Shown piece by piece: positions 53,770 to 62,050 of a DNA stretch of 64,000 bases. Each line of letters starts with the position of its first letter. Positions within the stretch are counted from its first letter, which is position 1. Source of the stretch: Dehalococcoidia bacterium (lineage in GTDB: Bacteria > Chloroflexota > Dehalococcoidia > Lucifugimonadales > CATOSD01); contig CBDBBO010000001.1 of the NCBI GenBank assembly GCA_965203135.1, positions 1,678,071 to 1,742,070 on the forward strand, in the 5' to 3' direction. Under the pieces are notes generated by a model. The model made no database searches and was not told the origin of the DNA. It saw nothing but the letters and a program-made list of their open reading frames with translations. The position numbers and the translations under genes are program-made.

Positions 53770-54474
53770 TCAGTCGTCTATCTTCAGGCTGCCCATCACC
53801 ACCTGGCCAGTTATGATCAGGTCGGGCGCGCCGTCTTTGCTCTCCTGGTTGGAACGTTCGTCCTTTGCCTCGCCCATCACGGTCGTGTTCTCCAGCCGCA
53901 CGCTCCAGTCCCGGGGTACTCTGAGTCTGGCTTCACCCATCACTACGGTCACCTCCAGTGTGGCAGGCCGTTCCTCGACCGCCGAGTCCCGAAGGTCCAC
54001 GTGCGACGAGCCCATGACCGTCGTGGCCTGGCCGCCCCTGAAGTCGCCCGAGATTACGTTCTCCCTGTTGGAACTGAAGATGTTGAAGGCGTCGACTTGG
54101 CCGCCCTCCGCCGTGAACCGGCTTGTCTCGGGCGATCCGACCGTCTCGGGCTGCGGACGCCTCCCGGGGCCACGGCCCAGAATTATGGCGACGCCTGCCG
54201 CGATGAGCACGACCGGCCAGAAGATGGCTCCGTCCACACCAAGCCAACTCAGCTGGACGATCAGGGCTATGGTGATTATCAGCACGGGCCAGAACACGCG
54301 CCGGAAGCCGTTGGCAACGAGCCGCCACAGGCCGAACAGGATGAAAAGCGAAGGAGCCCATCGCACAACGTTGTCGAAAGCGGTGACTCCGGTGTTCTGC
54401 AGAAGGAGCAGCACGCCCACGGCTACTATCAGCAGCCCTATGACTATCCGGCTGGAATTCCTGCTTCCGTTCAT
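53770..54474 (-). CDS. LiaF-like cell-envelope stress protein (DUF2154-type C-terminus)
   Basis: An N-terminal LiaI/LiaF TM region is followed by C-terminal 'TTVMGSSHVDLRD...LEVTVVMGEARLRVP...ENTTVMGE' repeats, as in LiaF. Confidence 0.72.
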   Translation of the reverse strand: MNGSRNSSRIVIGLLIVAVGVLLLLQNTGVTAFDNVVRWAPSLFILFGLWRLVANGFRRVFWPVLIITIALIVQLSWLGVDGAIFWPVVLIAAGVAIILGRGPGRRPQPETVGSPETSRFTAEGGQVDAFNIFSSNRENVISGDFRGGQATTVMGSSHVDLRDSAVEERPATLEVTVVMGEARLRVPRDWSVRLENTTVMGEAKDERSNQESKDGAPDLIITGQVVMGSLKIDD

Positions 54475-54558
54475 GTGGACATCGACCTTTGAGTTGCGCG
54501 GTCGCGCCTGTAAGACGGCGGAGCGCGCATAAGGCGCCCCGCCGTCCGGTAATCCGGC

Positions 54559-56112
54559 CTACGAGGTGGGCACGTCGAAGGTCGGGCGCGTGTCCTGCGT
54601 CGCCAGCAGCCGGTTGAGGGCGTTCATGTACGCCTTGGCGCTGGCCACGATGATGTCGGTGTCCGAGCCGCGGCCCACGTAGGTTTTCTCGTCTTTCTCG
54701 ATGCGTATGGTCACGTCGCCGAGCGCGTCGATGCCCTCCGTCACGGCGTCCACCCTGTACTCGGTCAGCCTGTTGGGCACGTTCACCAGGCGGTTGATCG
54801 CCTTGTACACGGCGTCCACGGGGCCGGTGCCCGTCGCGGCGTCCGTGACCTCACGGTCGTCCGGGTCTCGCAGCGTGACTGTGGCAGTCGGCACCTCGTG
54901 ATTGCCGCACGACACCTGGATGTGCTCCAGACTGAACACGGAGGGAATGTCGGTGGTGCGGCGCTGGCTCGACATGAGCGCGCTCAGGTCCGCGTCGGTG
55001 ACCTCCGGCTTGCGGTCGGCGAGGCTCTTGAACGCCTCGAACGCCTCGTTCAGCTCGTCCTGCTCCAGGTTGTAGCCCAGCTCGCTCAGCCGCGCCCTCA
55101 GGCCGGCCCTACCGCTCAGCTTGCCGAGCACCAGCTCGTTGCTGGGCCAGCCGATGGACTGCGGGTCCATGATCTCGAACGTGGTGCGCTCCTTCAGCAC
55201 GCCGTCCTGGTGGATGCCGGAGGCGTGGCGGAAGGCGTTTGCGCCCACCACGGCCTTGTTTGGCTGCACCATGAAGCCGGTGATGTCGCTCACCAGCTTG
55301 CTGGTGCGGTATATCTGGCGGGTGTCGATTCCGGTCTCGACGCCGTAGTGGTCCTTGCGCGTCTCCAGCGCCATGATGACCTCTTCGAGCGCGGCGTTGC
55401 CCGCCCGCTCGCCGAGGCCGTTGATGCAGCCCTCGACCTGCCGGGCGCCCTCGGCCACGGCGGCGAGGCTGTTGCCCGACGCCTGGCCCAGGTCGTTGTG
55501 GCAGTGCACGCTCAGCACGGCCTTGTCGATGTTGGGCACGTTCTCCTTGATGAGCCGGATGCGCTCGCGGAACTCCCAGGGCATGACGTAGCCCACCGTG
55601 TCCGGGATGTTGATGGTGGTGGCGCCCGCGTCGATGGCGGCCTCCAGCATCCTGTACAGGTACTCGATGTCCGTGCGCGTGGCGTCCATCGGAGAGAACT
55701 CCACGTCGTCGCAGTAGCTCTTGGCGCGCTCGACCGAGGCGATGGCCATTTCCATGACCTCTTCCGGGTTGCGGCGGAGCTGGTGCATGATCTGCACGTC
55801 CGAGCTCGAGATGAAGACATGGATGCGCGGCCTATCGGCATCCTTGATCGCCTCCCATGCGGCGTCGACGTCCGGCAGCACGCAGCGGGCGAGCGAGGCG
55901 ATGACGGGTCTGCGCACCTCGCGCGCGATGGTCTGCACCGCCTCGAAGTCTCCGGGCGAGCTGGCGGCGAATCCGGCCTCGATCACGTCCACGCCCAGCC
56001 TGTCGAGCTGCCTGGCGATCTCCAGCTTCTCCTGGGTGGTCAGGCCGATGCCCGCGGACTGCTCGCCGTCCCTCAGCGTGGTATCGAAGATTATTACTCG
56101 GTCATCCGACAT
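54559..56112 (-). CDS. leuA: 2-isopropylmalate synthase
   Basis: '[19 protein letters not shown]', '[20 protein letters not shown]' and a C-terminal LeuA dimerisation/regulatory domain are present. The start is at MSDDRV (ATG 56112), not the track start at 56316. Confidence 0.95.
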
Positions 56113-56279
56113 TGTGTGTCTCCTGTGTGGGTCTGAAATTCGTAGGTCGGCTTCGGGTGTGATGGCGCCGCCTATCGAAGGGCAACGCAGTCCGCCGAGC
56201 CGAGCCTCGCCAGGACCCGGCCTGTGCGGCGAACTACGTGTGGTGTCTCCTTGTGGTTCATGTCGTCGTCTGTCCTTTG

Positions 56280-56480
56280 CTACTTCAAAAGCAACGCTAC
56301 GATCAGCGTTACCCACATAGTTATGATGACTCCAAGTGTCACAACCATGTTCCGGTTTACAACCGAGCGGAGTTCCCTTATGTCTTGCTTGGTGTCGCTA
56401 ACTTCGCGGACGAGCGACTCCACGACGGCTTCGATTCTTGCTAGTCGTTCGCCTTCCGGAGCCTGCTGAGTTGTAGTCAT
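56280..56480 (-). CDS. Small tail-anchored protein (66 aa), paralog of 56538..56774
   Basis: '[38 protein letters not shown]' forms a coiled coil, followed by a C-terminal TM '[20 protein letters not shown]'. The N-terminal about 40 aa are clearly homologous to the neighbouring 78-aa ORF. Confidence 0.55.
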
Positions 56481-56537
56481 TGTTCACTTCTCCAAGTCCA
56501 GAAACGGCGACATAGACTGCGCGGTCTGAATGTACAG

Positions 56538-56774
56538 CTAAGCCTTGAGTATGAGCGTAACGATTAGGCCAATCAATGAGGGCGCCAATATCCCAATCAG
56601 TGTTGCCAGCATCCAAAGAAAGTAGGTGCGCACCTTGCTGTCGAGATCGCGAATGGCGGTTCGGATGTCCCTGACATCCGCCTTTAGGTCTCCCACTTCG
56701 CGCACGAGGTAGTCGACGGTGGCTTCCAGTCTTGCCAGCCTTTCGCCTTCTGGAACTTCTTGAACTGTGGTCAC
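56538..56774 (-). CDS. Small tail-anchored protein (78 aa), XhlA-like architecture (tentative)
   Basis: '[48 protein letters not shown]' is followed by the C-terminal TM 'FLWMLATLIGILAPSLIGLIVTLIL'. There is a 4-nt overlap with the upstream Mrr-like gene. Confidence 0.6.
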   Translation of the reverse strand: MTTVQEVPEGERLARLEATVDYLVREVGDLKADVRDIRTAIRDLDSKVRTYFLWMLATLIGILAPSLIGLIVTLILKA

Positions 56775-57583
56775 TGTTTGTTCTCCAAGTCACCGAAGAA
56801 GTCTTCGTCCACTTCCTGCGTAACGACCGGAACGACCTTTACACCCAGACTAAGCCGTATCATCTCTTCTACTAGGTCGCTGCCGTCGATCAGCGTAATC
56901 GGCGCCTGCCTCTCTTCGACCCAGCCCTTTGCTGCCGGAGTGTAGCTTGACGTGGTGACGAGCACTCCTCTGTCGAATCTACCAGTCATACTACCCGACA
57001 GCCGTTGAACAGGCTCGATGCCCACGCTGTTCGAGGCTGCATATCGCTTCGCCTGAAACGCAACCTTTACACTAATGAATGGGATCTCGCATTGTCCGTC
57101 GATACCGCCGTCGTTTGTACGGCCCGTCACCGTTACGTTCTCAAGACCCTTGGCCCTGAAAAACTCGCCTACCAGCGCCTCGAAATCGCTAGGCGTGAGG
57201 TTCATTATGCGCTCGCGCAACTTTGCCGAGAAGTCGCCTTCCGAGTCATCGACTGTTTCAGGGCCAGAGATAGGCAACTGGGATTCTTCAGTGGGTCTCT
57301 TTGCATCTTCAAACTTCTGACGAAAAGAGGCTAGTGCTTCTCCTCTCGCTATAACATTGTCCCAGCCATTGCTGCTACGGCCCTTCACATCTCTTGCCCA
57401 CCCAGAAGGAGTGCCAAATGCCTTGCCACTCTCGTCCATGATTGAACCGTCAGACTGAAGACGCGCTCTTTGAGTCCCCCCGACGTGCACGGGTGGCACA
57501 CATATCAACTCCTCACCAACAGATAGAAGTCCAGCTTCAATCAGGTCCTTCATTTTTGCTTTGTGGATTGCCTTTCGTGGCAT
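56771..57583 (-). CDS. Mrr-like restriction endonuclease (Mrr_cat PD-(D/E)xK domain) with an N-terminal RAMA/DUF4357-like domain (tentative)
   Basis: The C-terminal 'LTPSDFEALVGEFFRAKGLENVTVTGRTNDGGIDGQCE...VAFQAKRY...VLVTTSSYTPAA' is the Mrr_cat pattern (D...D-x-Q-x-K). The N-terminal '...ARLQSDGSIMDESGKAFGTPSGWARDVKGRSSNGWDNV' resembles RAMA-type domains. Confidence 0.82.
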   Translation of the reverse strand: MPRKAIHKAKMKDLIEAGLLSVGEELICVPPVHVGGTQRARLQSDGSIMDESGKAFGTPSGWARDVKGRSSNGWDNVIARGEALASFRQKFEDAKRPTEESQLPISGPETVDDSEGDFSAKLRERIMNLTPSDFEALVGEFFRAKGLENVTVTGRTNDGGIDGQCEIPFISVKVAFQAKRYAASNSVGIEPVQRLSGSMTGRFDRGVLVTTSSYTPAAKGWVEERQAPITLIDGSDLVEEMIRLSLGVKVVPVVTQEVDEDFFGDLENKQ

Positions 57584-57610
57584 GGTTCAAACGCTTTCCG
57601 TACGGTCGTC

Positions 57611-57793
57611 CTAGTCTGGATCAGAACTAGAACCTATCGTATCTCGCAATCCGCTGTGTGTCTCTTCCACAGGATGATTGTCGTCTTGGGCGCGCAACTC
57701 GGCGCGCATTTTCGCCGTCATCTCAGCAATCCGCCGCTTATCCTCGAGCGAGAAGCTCTTCGTGAGTTCACTAAACTTGCGGTGTCCGCTCAT
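57611..57793 (-). CDS. Hypothetical 60-aa protein (antitoxin-like helical peptide?)
   Basis: The ORF overlaps the end of the DUF2283 gene by 23 nt. 'FSELTKSFSLEDKRRIAEMTAKMRAEL' resembles segments of small antitoxin/HTH partners. Evidence is weak. Confidence 0.35.
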   Translation of the reverse strand: MSGHRKFSELTKSFSLEDKRRIAEMTAKMRAELRAQDDNHPVEETHSGLRDTIGSSSDPD

Positions 57794-58022
57794 GGATGAA
57801 TCCTGTATCGAGCTCAGCGCCAGCCAGTTCCACGTCCAGCCAGCCCTCGATGTCTGAAAGGCCCTCGACCATGAAGCCTATCACCTTGCCGTTTTCGTCG
57901 TACCTCGCCTGAACGTTGTCGCCGCCGGGTAGCGCGTCGTAGTAACCCGCCTTGGACTCGAAGTGGACGAAGAGCATGTCAGCATCCCCAAGATAAGAGA
58001 TTCTCACGTTTCTCTTTCCCAT
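57771..58022 (-). CDS. DUF2283 domain-containing protein
   Basis: 'VRISYLGDADMLFVHFES...ARYDENGKVIGFMVEGLS' fits the DUF2283 pattern (xxYDxEADxLYI...G.I.GIEI). The start was chosen at ATG 58022. Confidence 0.68.
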   Translation of the reverse strand: MGKRNVRISYLGDADMLFVHFESKAGYYDALPGGDNVQARYDENGKVIGFMVEGLSDIEGWLDVELAGAELDTGFIHERTPQV

Positions 58023-58053
58023 TCCACTCCCTTCCCGGTGAACCACTCCTTAG

Positions 58054-58317
58054 TCAATATAGAATCTTGAACAGAAAGGCGGAATCCAGACTTTGCCCAG
58101 AGCCTACCTTGTCCAGGCACTCTACTTGTGCCCGCTCTCGAAACTTCTGAGTCTCAAGCACTTGGCCGACGTCGATAGCAGCATCGCCATATGTCAGTCC
58201 CAAAACGCAACGCACATTTCCTATACGGAAACAGATCCACGCTCTTCCCTCACGCCGAGACTTCTCAACTTGTTCGCACAGGTAGGTCCGAATCTGATAT
58301 GCACTCCCTTGTGGCAT
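58054..58317 (-). CDS. Hypothetical 87-aa protein
   Basis: The ORF is of normal composition in the AT-richer islet, and starts 10 nt after the ilvC stop. No family was recognised. Confidence 0.45.
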   Translation of the reverse strand: MPQGSAYQIRTYLCEQVEKSRREGRAWICFRIGNVRCVLGLTYGDAAIDVGQVLETQKFRERAQVECLDKVGSGQSLDSAFLFKILY

Positions 58318-58327
58318 TTCGTTGCCC

Positions 58328-59326
58328 CTAGTCCGCGTCCTTGAGGAAGCTCATCATGCCGCGCAGGTCTTCGCCCACCTGCTCGATCTGGTGCTCGGCG
58401 TTCTCGCGGCGCAGCCGGTCGAAGCGCGGGCGGCCCTCGTCGTTCTCGGCGATCCATTCGCGGGCGAAGCTGCCGTCCTGGATGCGGGCCAGCACCTCGC
58501 GCATGTTGTCCTTCACCCGCTCGTCCACCACCACTGGGCCGCGGGTGTAGTCGCCGTACTCGGCGGTGTCGCTGACCGAGTAGCGCATGTAGCCCATGCC
58601 GCCCTGGTAGAGCAGGTCCACGATGAGCTTGAGTTCGTGCATGCACTCGAAGTAGGCGGACTCCGGCTGGTAGCCCGCCTCGACCAGCGTCTCGTACGCC
58701 GCTTTGACGAGCGCCGTGACGCCGCCGCACAGCACGGCTTGTTCGCCGAACAGGTCCGTCTCGGTCTCCTCTTTGAACGTGGTGTCGAGCACGCCCGCCC
58801 GCGTGCAGCCGATGCCGCGTGCGTAGGCCAGGCTCAGGCCGTGGGCGTTTCCGGTAGCGTCCTGGTGTACGGCCAACAAGCCGGGCACGCCGGAGCCCCT
58901 GGTGAACACCTCTCTCATGCGGTGGCCCGGCGCCTTGGGCGCGACCATGGAGACGTCTATGCTGTCGGCGGGCTTGATGGTGTCGTAGTGGATGTTGAAG
59001 CCGTGGGCGAACATCAGCGTCTGCCCCGGCAGCAGGTGGGGCGCGACGGACTCGCGGTACACCTCGGCCTGCAGGTGGTCGGGGATCAGCATCATCACGA
59101 TGTCGGAGTCGCGGGCCACGTCGGCGACAAGCCCCACCTCCAGGCCGTCCTCCTCCGCCTTGGCGATGCTGCGGCTGCCCTCGTACAGCCCCACCTTGAC
59201 GCTGACGCCGCTGTCATCCAGGTTCAGCGCGTGGGCGTGACCCTGGCTGCCGTACCCGATTATGCCGACCGTCTTGCCGTCCAGCAGGGACATGTCGGCG
59301 TCGTTTTCGTAGTACATCTTTACCAT
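58328..59326 (-). CDS. ilvC: Ketol-acid reductoisomerase (class I)
   Basis: '[22 protein letters not shown]', '[11 protein letters not shown]' and '[17 protein letters not shown]' are canonical IlvC motifs. Confidence 0.95.
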
Positions 59327-59349
59327 TGTTGTTTCACCTTCACCTCAAT

Positions 59350-59370
59350 CCTCTCCCATCGAGGGAGAGG
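59350..59370. repeat. Palindromic hairpin (cctctccc-atcga-gggagagg) between ilvN and ilvC, dispersed hairpin family
   Basis: It has an 8-bp perfect stem. It lies inside the operon, between the ilvN stop at 59390 and the ilvC start at 59326. Confidence 0.5.
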
Positions 59371-59389
59371 AGGCCTTCTGGGAACTGCG

Positions 59390-59956
59390 TTACACACTAC
59401 CCGTTTCCAGGGGCTTGCGTGCTCTTGCCTGGGCCCCGTTACGCTGCGCGGTCGGGACGCTCATGCCGCGAGCCAACGCGATCTTGCCGGTGCGCATCAC
59501 CTCCAGGACGCCGAAGGCGCTTAGCAGGTGTTGCAGCGAGTCTATCTTGTCCTCGTCCCCGGTCACCTCGATTATGAGCGAGTCCGGCGCCAGGTCCACG
59601 ATGTGCGCGCGGAAGATGTCCGCGATCTGCATGATCTCCCCGCGCGTCTGGAAGTTGGAGCGCACCCGTATCAGGCCCAGCTCCCGCGTCACCGTGTTCT
59701 CGTCGGACATGTCGGTGACCTTGACGACGTCGATGAGCTTGTGCAGGTGCTTGGTGACCTGCTCCACCACGGCCTGGTCGCCCTCGACCACGAACGTCAT
59801 GCGGGAGAGTTCGGGCAACTCGCTCTGCCCCACCGCCAGGCTGGAGATGTTGAAGCCGCGCCTCCGGAACATGCTCGACACGCGGTTGAGCACGCCCGGC
59901 CTGTCGTTGACCAGCGCGGTGATGGTGTGTCTGGACATGGAATCGGTCATCGTCAT
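59390..59956 (-). CDS. ilvN: Acetolactate synthase small (regulatory) subunit
   Basis: 'HTITALVNDRPGVLNRVSSMFRRRGFNISSLAVGQSE' is the ACT domain, followed by an ALS_ss_C domain. The ATGA overlap with the ilvB stop was confirmed at 59953-59956. The track ORF extension to 60478 is antisense-like noise. Confidence 0.93.
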   Translation of the reverse strand: MTMTDSMSRHTITALVNDRPGVLNRVSSMFRRRGFNISSLAVGQSELPELSRMTFVVEGDQAVVEQVTKHLHKLIDVVKVTDMSDENTVTRELGLIRVRSNFQTRGEIMQIADIFRAHIVDLAPDSLIIEVTGDEDKIDSLQHLLSAFGVLEVMRTGKIALARGMSVPTAQRNGAQARARKPLETGSV

Positions 59957-61647
59957 CGGTTCACCCTCTGGAGCGTGGGCTCTTCCATAAGCTGCTCGAC
60001 GGTGGTGCCCGCCGGAATCATCGGGTACACGTTGTCTTCCTGCTCGACGACGAAGTCCACCACGGCGGGGCCGTCGTAGCTCATCGCCTCCTCGATGGCC
60101 GGTCTGACCTGGAGCTTGTCGGTCACTCTCAATCCCAGCATTCCGAATGCGTCGGCCAGCTTCACGAAATCCGGGTTGTGGGTGTACTTGGTGGCCACGT
60201 AGCTCTTCTCGTAGAAGAGTTGCTGCCACTGCCGCACCATTCCCAGGCAGTTGTTGTTCATGATGGCGAACTTCACGGGTATGCGGTTCTCCACCAGGGT
60301 GGCGAGTTCGGCCATCGTCATCTGGAAGCCGCCGTCGCCCGCGACGGACCACACCACCTTGTCGGGGCGGCCCACCTGCGCGCCCATCGCGCCGGGCACC
60401 TCGTAGCCCATCGCGCCGGAGCCGCAGGACGAGATGAGCGAGCTGCGGTGCTTGAACGGGTAGTGCTGCGCTGCCCACATCTGGTGCTGGCCCACGCCGG
60501 TCACTATCAGCGCCTCGCCGTCCGTGGCCTCGGCGATCTGCTGGATGATGTAGCGGATCTGCAGCGCCTGGGCGTCGTTGGGGTCCACCAGCGGATGCTC
60601 GCGCTTGAGCTGGTCGATGCGGCCCAGCCAGTCTAGGTGCGAGCCCTGCTCGACCTGGCGGGTCAGCGCCGCCAGCGTCAGCCGCAGGTCGCCCACAATC
60701 GGCAGGTCGGCGGGCACGTTCTTGCCTATCTCCGACGGGTCGATGTCCACGTGTATCTTCTTGGAGTTGAGCGCGAACAGCGCGGGGTTGCCCGTGATGC
60801 GGTCGTCGAAACGCATGCCCAGCGCTATCAGCAGGTCGGCCTCTTCGATGGCGAGGCTCGCGTAGGCCATGCCGTGCATCCCCGGCCAGCCGGAGTAGAG
60901 CACGTGGCTGGTGGGGAAGCAGCTCACGCCCATGAGCGTGGTGATGACGGGTATCTGCGTCTTCTCGGCGAACTCGCGCAGCTCATCGTAGGCGTGCGAC
61001 AGGATCACGCCGTGTCCGGCGATAATGACGGGACGCTTCGCCTCCTTGATGAGCTTCGCGGCCCTTCTTACCTGCCCGGAGTGGGGGGCCAGATTGGGCT
61101 TGTAGCTCTCCATTTCGGGCGTGTCGGGGTAGACGAACTCGCCCTCCTCCGTGAACACGTCCTTGGGTATGTCGACGAGCACAGGCCCCGGCCTGCCGGT
61201 GGAGGCGATGTAGAAGGCCTCGCGAATCACCGACGGTATCTCTTCCGCGGTCATCACCAGGTAGTTGTGCTTGGTGATGGGCAGGGTTATGCCGGTGATG
61301 TCGGTTTCCTGGAAGGCGTCGCTGCCGATAGCCGCGCGCCCCACCTGTCCGGTGATGGCGACCATCGGGATCGAGTCCATCTGCGCGGTGGCGATGCCGG
61401 TCACCAGGTTGGTTGCGCCGGGGCCGGACGTGGCCCAGCACACGCCGGGGCGTCCGGTGGCGCGGGCGTATCCGTCGGCGGCGTGCGCGGCGCCCTGCTC
61501 GTGGCGCACCAGGATGTGGCGCAGGCCCGGAAACTCGGGCAGCGTCTGGTATAGGGGAAGGATGGCTCCGCCCGGGAGGCCGAAGATCGTGTCCACGCCC
61601 TCTCGCAGCAGGCTTTCGCAAACCATCTGTCCGCCATTCATCTTCAT
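59953..61647 (-). CDS. ilvB: Acetolactate synthase large subunit, biosynthetic type
   Basis: 'GGQMVCESLLREGVDTIFGLPGGAILPLY', 'GATNLVTGIATAQMDSIPMV' and 'GDGGFQMTMAELAT' (ThDP motif) are present. GGAGG lies upstream of ATG 61647. Confidence 0.95.
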   Translation of the reverse strand: MKMNGGQMVCESLLREGVDTIFGLPGGAILPLYQTLPEFPGLRHILVRHEQGAAHAADGYARATGRPGVCWATSGPGATNLVTGIATAQMDSIPMVAITGQVGRAAIGSDAFQETDITGITLPITKHNYLVMTAEEIPSVIREAFYIASTGRPGPVLVDIPKDVFTEEGEFVYPDTPEMESYKPNLAPHSGQVRRAAKLIKEAKRPVIIAGHGVILSHAYDELREFAEKTQIPVITTLMGVSCFPTSHVLYSGWPGMHGMAYASLAIEEADLLIALGMRFDDRITGNPALFALNSKKIHVDIDPSEIGKNVPADLPIVGDLRLTLAALTRQVEQGSHLDWLGRIDQLKREHPLVDPNDAQALQIRYIIQQIAEATDGEALIVTGVGQHQMWAAQHYPFKHRSSLISSCGSGAMGYEVPGAMGAQVGRPDKVVWSVAGDGGFQMTMAELATLVENRIPVKFAIMNNNCLGMVRQWQQLFYEKSYVATKYTHNPDFVKLADAFGMLGLRVTDKLQVRPAIEEAMSYDGPAVVDFVVEQEDNVYPMIPAGTTVEQLMEEPTLQRVNR

Positions 61648-62050
61648 TATGTAGCTAACCTCCGTGGGCTTCGAGGGTGGCGCTTGGAGTCGTATACAAA
61701 AAAACCCGCCCCTGCGCAAAGGGACGGGATTGCTAATCTCGTGGTACCACCCAATTTACCCCGGCGGGCGCTACCTGACAGGCGCGCTACGCGGGGCCAC
61801 TTGTGGGCTGTATAACGGCGGCCAACCGCCCGACCCTAAGCGGAGAGGAGGGGCTAAATTACCAAGCGCGCAGAGCGCGTGATATGAACGCTAGAGCTCT
61901 GCAACGTCTGGACTCCTCTGTGCTTCAGGCCGGGTGCTCCGGGGCGAGTTCTCGAAGGTCCTGGCGCCGGCTCACACCACCGCCGGCTCTCTGGGGCCGG
62001 TATCTCCGGTACTACTCCCCTTCGACGCATCTGACTGTATTTCAGTTAGG
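61648..62050 (-). promoter_or_regulatory. T-box riboswitch leader upstream of ilvB, probable Leu (CUC) specifier
   Basis: Read on the minus strand, the T-box sequence is 'AAAUUGGGUGGUACCACGAG' (61738-61757). The F-box-like element is 'GCCGUUA'. Stem I elements are 'GGAGUAGUACC', 'CCAGAGAGCCGG' and 'GGUGGUGUGA'. The specifier-loop context 'GAGAA-CUC-G' places CUC at 61946-61948. Confidence 0.8.
61698..61728 (-). terminator. Intrinsic terminator of the T-box leader
   Basis: On the minus strand it reads CCCGUCCC-UUUGCGCA-GGGGCGGG followed by U7. It lies immediately 3' of the T-box sequence. Confidence 0.8.

Follow-up and report, generated by a model that had tools for sequence, protein, structure and literature searches.

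The immigration control region of Escherichia coli is a variable hotspot that holds mrr, mcrBC, and hsd. E. coli Mrr and the Mrr-like Type IV restriction enzymes are single polypeptides in which an N-terminal reader is joined to a C-terminal Mrr_cat nuclease domain with a D...(Q/E)xK site, and no methyltransferase gene is adjacent. A design of reader, linker, and nuclease is also found in the Type IIM/IV enzymes MspJI and AspBHI (4f0q, 4oc8), whose SRA-like readers bind 5-methylcytosine (5mC) or 5-hydroxymethylcytosine (5hmC). In the winged-helix Type IV enzymes that depend on N6-methyladenine (6mA), i.e., DpnI-like enzymes and HhiV4I, a small reader is likewise fused to a nuclease; furthermore, RAMA-nuclease fusions are suspected, as yet uncharacterised, 6mA readers in Type IV systems, and the prokaryotic RAMA-Mrr_cat fusions mentioned in the same article are three-domain proteins with an NTPase (PMC11037411). 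The present analysis is focused on a RAMA-Mrr_cat gene without an NTPase domain, orfD, which lies together with five other small open reading frames (ORFs), orfA, orfB, orfC, orfE, and orfF, between ilvC and leuA in a Dehalococcoidia genome. The whole stretch of DNA that was analysed, 64,000 nucleotides in length, is hereafter referred to as the window. Judged from sequence comparisons, orfD probably encodes a solitary Type IV-like restriction enzyme that resides in an old variable slot of a T-box-controlled ilv-leu operon, with a reader that is exchanged between alleles, beside conserved tail-anchored mini-proteins and together with a relic reader and two passengers.

The orfD nuclease and its reader types

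An original prediction, made from the letters of the window alone, described an Mrr-like nuclease with a reader N-domain, and the Pfam matches of orfD agree with it. RAMA (residues 7–94, at about 57302–57565; PF18755, E=7e-18, 64.9 bits, cut-off 35.2) and Mrr_cat (residues 127–240, at about 56864–57205; PF04471, E=5.8e-28, 97.7 bits, cut-off 21) both score above the cut-off, and a match to DUF4357 falls under it. The PADLOC model mREase_IV (E=4e-21) and PDC-S02 match only the catalytic C-terminal half. The catalytic residues, for which an alignment had been proposed as a check, are intact: E135, D158, D162, and Q177-A-K179 are invariant across 16 aligned RAMA-Mrr_cat homologues, D...(Q/E)xK is the Mrr-family form of the PD-(D/E)xK site, and the D...EAK of AspBHI aligns opposite D162...Q177-A-K179. 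Searched against the PDB, the alignment profile matches the RAMA domain of human MPND (7ydt, E=3e-9) and AspBHI (4oc8, E=2.8e-7). The AlphaFold model of orfD has a mean predicted local distance difference test score (pLDDT) of 80, with a disordered linker at residues 96–115. In Foldseek, the best matches of the catalytic half are MspJI (E=8e-9) and AspBHI (E=5e-8), and the N-terminal domain matches the MPND RAMA-DNA complex (E=1e-5, template modelling score 0.79, root-mean-square deviation 2.4 Å). The ratio of nonsynonymous to synonymous substitution rates (dN/dS) is 0.27–0.28 for orfD vs. 0.06–0.11 for ilvC and leuA.

The composition of orfD resembles that of the described enzymes in part. 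Like E. coli Mrr, it is a single polypeptide with an N-terminal reader and a C-terminal Mrr_cat domain; it is a solitary gene with ilvC and leuA as neighbours, and no methyltransferase family is matched among the six gap ORFs in Pfam, NCBIfam, or PADLOC. Unlike E. coli Mrr, it carries RAMA in place of Mrr_N, sits in a biosynthetic operon, and is known here from sequence. The reader-linker-nuclease design is shared with MspJI and AspBHI, although the reader is RAMA rather than SRA-like and the identity is just 17–24%. The N-terminal 90 residues match human MPND RAMA (7ydt/7ydw) by profile and fold, whereas MPND itself is a eukaryotic deubiquitinase-like protein. Taken together, none of the sequence features of a solitary modification-dependent restriction enzyme is missing from orfD, and its activity and ligand are inferred on this basis. 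Homology to Mrr, MspJI, and AspBHI suggests that orfD acts as a Type IV restriction enzyme: foreign DNA that bears a modification, possibly 6mA, would be bound by the RAMA domain and then cut by the Mrr_cat domain, with no partner methyltransferase needed.

The nucleases found in the same slot of related genomes carry three N-terminal types. The RAMA type comprises orfD of the window and P0001–P0013. Type A is a domain of about 87 amino acids (aa) that starts MPxGDADRIRxY...FRAGDIR and is without a Pfam family; its members are P0016, P0017, P0020, P0023, P0024, P0027, L011, and L013. Type W (P0014, P0018, P0021, P0029, L012, and L014) weakly matches Mrr_N (E=0.007), so that some alleles of this locus resemble E. 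coli Mrr in having an Mrr_N-like winged helix. A coiled-coil insert is also present in some RAMA and W forms. The reader is exchanged among at least three types while the catalytic domain stays, as would be expected of a module that sets specificity in an arms race.

A detached type A domain is encoded by orfA. Its residues 1–86 align with residues 1–87 of P0027 (BLASTP E=1e-17), and P0082 is matched at E=3e-17; orfA covers the whole type A domain and ends exactly at the start of the linker. The AlphaFold model of orfA (pLDDT 92) has the order helix-strand-helix-helix-strand-strand and is winged-helix-like. In this respect, the type A and type W alleles recall the DpnI-like enzymes and HhiV4I, whose readers are winged helices (PMC11037411); unlike these, orfA has no detectable sequence match and no significant Foldseek match to solved structures (best E=0.3, the weak matches being mostly winged helices). 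A PDB sequence search with orfA returned chance-level matches only (designed TIM barrels), and no family of Pfam, NCBIfam, PADLOC, or PHROG was matched. Detached pieces are also found in L036, which holds a 67-aa type A fragment and an Mrr_N-like remnant, and in L039 (6001–6564, on a 3.8-Mb contig), where P0082 consists of a type A reader fused directly to an orfE-like tail and the nuclease domain is missing. On this alignment evidence, orfA is a free-standing copy of a type A reader, probably the relic of an exchanged allele; it may still have a function of its own.

Relatives of orfD outside the lineage have also been found. RAMA-Mrr_cat genes are present in a Gemmatimonadota metagenome-assembled genome (MAG; L007, 2057–3342) and a Latescibacterota MAG (L008, 9983–11277), in both of which an SLT-TPR transglycosylase gene lies upstream and a near-identical soluble protein of 123–129 aa, of unknown family, lies downstream. 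This likeness across phyla suggests either a recent transfer of a cassette or mis-binning. Plasmid relatives are relatives of the catalytic domain only (85 records, at most 37% identity, annotated as "restriction endonuclease"), two records match in phage GenBank, and no relatives of the Mrr clade were found among the IMG/VR viral contigs.

The ilvC-leuA gap and its mini-proteins in related genomes

Relatives of the locus were gathered by an orfD search, by the reading of contigs, and by a scan of one genome per GTDB species. Mrr_cat homologues are located in the ilvC-leuA gap of at least 13 loci (L001–L006, L009–L014, and L038), which belong to Dehalococcoidia/Chloroflexi MAGs whose ilvC and leuA are 69–96% and 67–96% identical, respectively, to those of the window. 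The ilvC products of the related loci have KARI_N/KARI_C and the leuA products HMGL-like/LeuA_dimer domains, and all 19 related loci examined hold Mrr_cat and/or orfE homologues in the gap. The pairwise identity of Mrr_cat correlates with that of ilvC (Spearman 0.87) and leuA (0.94), with the reservation that the pairs are non-independent and p-values are not meaningful. An exception is L038, whose ilvC is 97–98% identical to that of L004, L006, and L010, yet whose Mrr_cat is only 68–73% identical, a mismatch that points to occasional exchange or replacement of alleles. The catalytic domain would thus be inherited largely with the operon, and the long-term residents would be a solitary Mrr nuclease and one or two mini-proteins of the orfE family.

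These comparisons do not agree with the original prediction that the gap genes form a recently inserted islet, as Mrr_cat is present in the same gap of the related loci, its divergence tracks that of the flanks, and borders are lacking. When the ilvC-leuA junctions were compared, the core genes proved to be shared by relatives, only orfA and the DUF2283 gene (orfB) were peculiar to the window among the 19 related loci, and the insertion borders that had been expected were not found. A site-specific or recent insertion of the gap genes was also rejected on the grounds that no direct repeats beyond chance flank the gap, no tRNA gene is present in the window, no integrase or transposase domain is found by Pfam among the six ORFs, and homologues occupy the same site in relatives. 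The AT-rich composition remarked on from the outset is real: the GC content is 0.50–0.56 across the gap (56200–58300) and about 0.67 (0.65–0.67) in the flanks, and the GC content at third codon positions (GC3) is 0.50–0.70 in the six gap ORFs vs. 0.90–0.94 in ilvB, ilvN, ilvC, and leuA. Across genomes (window, L001, L004, L006, L009, L012–L014, L036, L040, and L048), the slot genes have a GC3 of 0.45–0.70 vs. 0.72–0.94 for the flanking ilvC and leuA; because the same deviation is seen in every relative, it does not date a recent event. These comparisons make the ilvC-leuA gap a variable slot of long standing rather than the site of a fresh insertion.

The slot resembles the immigration control region of E. 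coli in its fixed position between conserved genes, its varying restriction content, and its exchanged alleles or domains. It differs in that it lies within a single co-directional biosynthetic operon without mobility genes, and in that its single nuclease gene keeps the catalytic half and swaps the reader. Other passengers of the slot are a HAD hydrolase (L004, L006, and L038), a Gp49/HigB-like toxin (L010), a GIY-YIG protein (L009), and GNAT with DUF952 (L039). In L010 (9711–10719), the Gp49/HigB-like toxin gene is accompanied by a reader-less Mrr_cat gene split by a frameshift and by a frameshifted orfE, and a frameshifted orfE is also found in L004 (7011–7260); these frameshifts are either decay or long-read indel errors.

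The mini-proteins orfE and orfF are paralogues of about 48% identity with the same architecture, i.e., a conserved N-terminus, a helical coiled-coil-like stretch, and a C-terminal transmembrane segment. The close members of the orfE family share the conserved N-terminus, a variable number of short helical repeats, and the C-terminal hydrophobic helix. A word-indexed database search returned just 5 orfE clusters, and an exhaustive profile search of 1.84 billion representatives was needed, by which 135 proteins were obtained at E≤1e-3 and 19 at E≤1e-10. When metagenomes were searched with a narrower orfE alignment, a single informative locus (L040) came up, along with six weak coiled-coil matches whose contexts were unrelated. 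All close members with a readable context (14 loci) lie in the ilvC-leuA gap. The dN/dS of orfE and orfF is 0.04–0.17, comparable to that of ilvC and leuA, and the orfF orthologue in L003 is 95% identical with a dN/dS of 0.05; by these measures, both are genuine, strongly constrained proteins.

The layout and size of orfE and orfF, with an N-terminal coiled-coil-like region and one C-terminal transmembrane helix, are like those of XhlA and small holins (PF10779, PHROG 689/1193). By contrast with these, orfE scores sub-threshold, has all of its close relatives with a readable context in the Dehalococcoidia ilvC-leuA gap, is under housekeeping-like constraint, and has no relatives in phage GenBank or in the viral contig scan. 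Membership of orfE in XhlA was rejected (Pfam E=0.24, 12 bits vs. a cut-off of 34.7), orfF has no Pfam match to XhlA, and the PHROG holin match of orfE (E=0.0097) is far below threshold. The best hit of a PDB sequence search with orfE, syntaxin-1A, is non-significant (E=0.019) and serves only to illustrate the architecture.

The Mrr gene and the mini-protein gene occur both together and apart. Both are present in seven genomes (window, L001/L002/L005, L003, L004, L010, L011, and L038), an Mrr gene without an orfE-like peptide is found in five (L006, L009, L012, L013, and L014), and an orfE-like gene without any Mrr_cat in six (L036, L037, L039, L040, L047, and L048). In L037, whose ilvC and leuA are 99% and 98% identical to those of the window, the gap holds just two orfE-like genes; in L047, the orfE-like gene begins 3 nt after ilvC and ends 30 nt before leuA. 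A hidden Markov model (HMM) search of six-frame ORFs in all fetched loci detected an orfE-like ORF beside none of 24 Mrr homologues outside the gap, so that the recurrence of tail-anchored peptides after Mrr_cat genes, raised in the original prediction, was not observed there. That prediction had also proposed a nuclease sensor coupled to a membrane effector; since the peptide occurs alone in six loci and Mrr alone in five, orfE and orfF are not obligate partners of the nuclease. Read from this distribution, they occupy the operon slot independently of the nuclease and do not serve as its dedicated effector arm, with orfE presumably translated immediately after Mrr when Mrr is present.

Operon context, small passengers, and the leuA leader

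The coordinates of the features are listed in Table 1. That six small minus-strand ORFs lie between ilvC and leuA was verified from the ORF list (54000–60500) and the sequence, and they are more than chance ORFs because homologues of orfD, orfE, orfF, and orfC lie at the same position elsewhere. The predicted 4-nt overlap of the Mrr-like gene with the first mini-protein gene is likewise present, as GTGA, joining the orfD stop to the orfE start. HMM searches of all six ORFs yielded RAMA/Mrr_cat for orfD and DUF2283 for orfB, and nothing above cut-off for orfA, orfC, orfE, or orfF. As predicted, the gap genes run in the direction of the operon and follow a Leu T-box, which sits upstream of ilvB and whose specifier is read from the alignment as CUC (Leu). 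The genes from the T-box onward are co-directional, and a simple promoter scan found no promoter-like or terminator-like site in 55900–58500. Given that all six gap genes share a strand and are tightly spaced, with no such sites among them, read-through from the ilv promoter and T-box probably accounts for their transcription.

Table 1. Features of the ilv-leu region of the window
Feature	Coordinates	Strand	Description and evidence
T-box leader of the ilvBNC-(gap)-leuA transcription unit	61717..62034	-	Rfam RF00230, 110 bits vs. gathering score 93
ilvC (ketol-acid reductoisomerase), upstream slot border	58328..59326	-	ORF; 69–99% identity to related-locus ilvC
orfA	58054..58317	-	87 aa
orfB (DUF2283)	57771..58046 from GTG start; 57771..58022 from ATG	-	83 aa from ATG
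orfC	57611..57793	-	60 aa, helical peptide
orfD (RAMA-Mrr_cat)	56771..57583	-	270 aa
orfE	56538..56774	-	78 aa, GTG start, tail-anchored mini-protein
orfF	56280..56480	-	66 aa, orfE paralogue
leuA leader element, downstream slot border	56172..56262; paired region ~56178–56249	-	Conserved, structured
leuA (2-isopropylmalate synthase)	54559..56112; ATG at 56112	-	ORF; 67–98% identity to related-locus leuA

DUF2283 proteins are often members of small toxin-antitoxin-like pairs, for example with a DUF4258 partner. For orfB, the DUF2283 assignment is clear (Pfam PF10049, E=3e-7, 30.8 bits, cut-off 23), the ATG at 58022 is preceded by a GGGAG ribosome-binding site, and NCBIfam, PADLOC, and PHROGs give no match. 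The toxin-antitoxin-like pair that had been suggested is not supported, as neither orfA nor orfC matches a toxin family in Pfam, NCBIfam, PADLOC, or PHROGs and no recognisable partner is seen. DUF2283 proteins have also been regarded as transcriptional regulators on integrative elements (PMC4755241). The small ORFs differ in their conservation: orfC, orfE, and orfF have homologues at the same position, whereas tblastn finds no homologue of orfB in the related loci. Overlapping the 3′ end of orfB, orfC has homologues upstream of Mrr in L001, L002, L003, and L005 (52–84% identity, tblastn) and also in L036. Its dN/dS of 0.28 vs. L001 and 2.6 vs. L003, based on few sites, denotes weak constraint; it matches no family in Pfam, NCBIfam, PADLOC, or PHROGs, and no relatives beyond the clade were found, a single identical sequence being returned from a database of 5.8 billion. 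Judged from these sequences, both orfB and orfC are passengers that vary between strains and may lack any function.

An element of about 90 nt directly upstream of leuA is kept in 14 loci (window, L001, L004, L006, L009–L013, L036, L038–L040, and L048). It folds into an 11-bp stem (CGYAGUYCGCC/GGCGGACUGCG) around an 8-bp hairpin with compensatory changes, and the 5′ half of an outer GGAG/CCUU helix resembles the Shine-Dalgarno sequence of leuA itself. By RNAalifold and pair counts, 96% of cells are paired vs. 30–46% when the pairing is slid; three pairs show compensatory changes, and the z-score of the minimum free energy is -3.7. Rfam has no match within the ilvC-leuA gap, and none for the leader at E≤10. 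The element can be read as a 29-aa ORF as well, which was rejected as a leader peptide because L048 lacks its ATG, and which is further disfavoured by amino-acid changes that coincide with G-U to G-C changes in the stem. The leuA leader is, on this covariation, a candidate new cis-regulatory RNA element.

Other gaps of the ilv-leu operon in these Dehalococcoidia also host accessory genes. A 23S_rRNA_IVP four-helix-bundle gene lies between ilvN and ilvC in L001 (2634–3008), PaREP1 and an MNT/HepT toxin-antitoxin pair between leuC and leuD in L039 (10627–11683), Uma2 between leuA and leuC in L048 (6245–6802), and unknown genes with a cytochrome c gene between leuC and leuD in L004 (10715–11856); the operon seems generally permissive to passenger genes. 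Downstream of leuA, the window encodes a PspC/LiaF-like membrane protein (53770..54474, minus strand), which also follows leuA in L001, and a LiaF-like gene is found a few genes downstream in L036; leuCD therefore does not follow leuA in this sub-clade.

Alternative explanations and implications

Several observations weigh against the reading of orfD as a solitary enzyme in an old slot. The gene lies outside any recognisable defence island, the simple promoter scan may overlook Chloroflexi promoters, and the ligand of RAMA is disputed, since MPND could not be confirmed to prefer 6mA (PMC11037411). The GC3 of the slot genes is 25–45 points under that of the flanks in every genome, which is odd for long vertical inheritance and may point to transfer having replaced these genes more often than the identity correlation implies; recurrent replacement from a shared lower-GC gene pool and selection on expression are possible causes. 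Furthermore, wherever both genes are present, the stop codon of Mrr overlaps or adjoins the start codon of orfE, and one fused ORF exists (P0021; L038, 4824–6062), in which a W reader and Mrr_cat run into an orfE-like coiled coil and transmembrane tail, so that a residual functional link between Mrr and orfE is possible. P0021 was rejected as firm Rosetta-stone evidence, since its long-read contig is labelled 2x and the fusion may be an indel error. The same junctions, tight in all seven genomes with both genes, together with the fusion, the 4-nt overlap, the low GC of the gap, and the weak likeness of orfE to a holin and to XhlA, could be taken to favour a mini defence islet of recent insertion, a new two-part system with the Mrr-like nuclease as the sensor of invading DNA and the tail-anchored peptides as its effector at the membrane. 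We give this little credence: both genes are old slot residents across the lineage, each occurs alone, the peptide is a neighbour of none of the Mrr homologues outside the gap, insertion borders are lacking, the fusion is uncertain, and the constraint on orfE is housekeeping-like, unlike that of typical fast-evolving defence effectors. An ancestrally functional pair, e.g., a nuclease tethered to or regulated at the membrane, of which either member has been lost repeatedly, would make the coupling real but dispensable. Consistent with this are the age of both genes in the slot, their constant Mrr-orfE order with overlapping or abutting stop and start, the persistence of this adjacency across RAMA (window, L001, L004), type A (L011), and type W (L038) readers, and the direct joining of a type A reader to an orfE-like tail in P0082. 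However, Mrr and orfE frequently occur independently, P0082 and P0021 are accounted for equally well by a lost nuclease domain or by indels from sequencing, and adjacency is trivial if both genes occupy a slot of 1–2 kb in a fixed ancestral order; such a pair is regarded as unlikely, if not negligibly so.

A domesticated Mrr-like protein with a housekeeping role in DNA repair, recombination, or regulation, rather than in restriction, would account for the single chromosomal position kept down to 69% ilvC identity with divergence that tracks the flanks, for the purifying selection on orfD, for relatives that are absent from viral contigs and distant on plasmids, and for a fold that weakly resembles those of the EndoMS/NucS repair nucleases (E about 1e-4). 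Such domestication as a core operon member is very unlikely, as the gene is absent from six related loci, including the closely similar L037, is truncated or frameshifted in L010, has an atypically low GC3, and evolves with a dN/dS 3–4 times that of the flanking genes; in addition, its reader-domain swapping is typical of a change of specificity under conflict, and its best structural and sequence matches are modification-dependent restriction enzymes. Compatible with the reading of orfD as a solitary enzyme in an old slot, and a serious possibility that falls somewhat short of an even chance, is the view that orfA, orfB, and orfC are decaying, functionless fragments and that only orfD, orfE, and orfF are real genes. 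It fits the status of orfA as one domain split off from a protein found whole in other genomes, the similar pieces in L036, the weak or absent constraint on orfC, and the want of an orfB counterpart in relatives. Set against it are the complete domain and confident predicted fold of orfA, free or re-fused type A domains in three genomes (window, L036, and L039), the retention of orfC in at least five loci, and the score of orfB above the Pfam cut-off with a plausible ribosome-binding site. The most far-reaching proposal is a selected, starvation-coupled defence slot, in which read-through of the Leu T-box ties the reader-swappable nuclease to stress on amino-acid supply or tRNA charging, e.g., during phage take-over, and the translationally coupled, tail-anchored orfE tethers or gates the nuclease at the membrane; it is highly improbable. 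If it were true, this slot and the unclassified leuA leader RNA would constitute a previously undescribed regulatory and defence arrangement in a biosynthetic operon.

If orfD is just another Type IV enzyme, the finding is ordinary. The locus nevertheless joins essentially the same Mrr_cat domain to three readers at one orthologous position, which would provide a natural series for mapping specificity by domain swaps, and it would serve as a test bed for whether prokaryotic RAMA reads 6mA, given the conflicting results on MPND. What looks like a low-GC defence islet of recent arrival can have belonged to a housekeeping operon for a long time, which calls for caution in island-calling and in "defence hotspot" heuristics. 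Finally, the orfE family appears to represent unannotated, conserved tail-anchored mini-proteins that are as constrained as ilvC and leuA.

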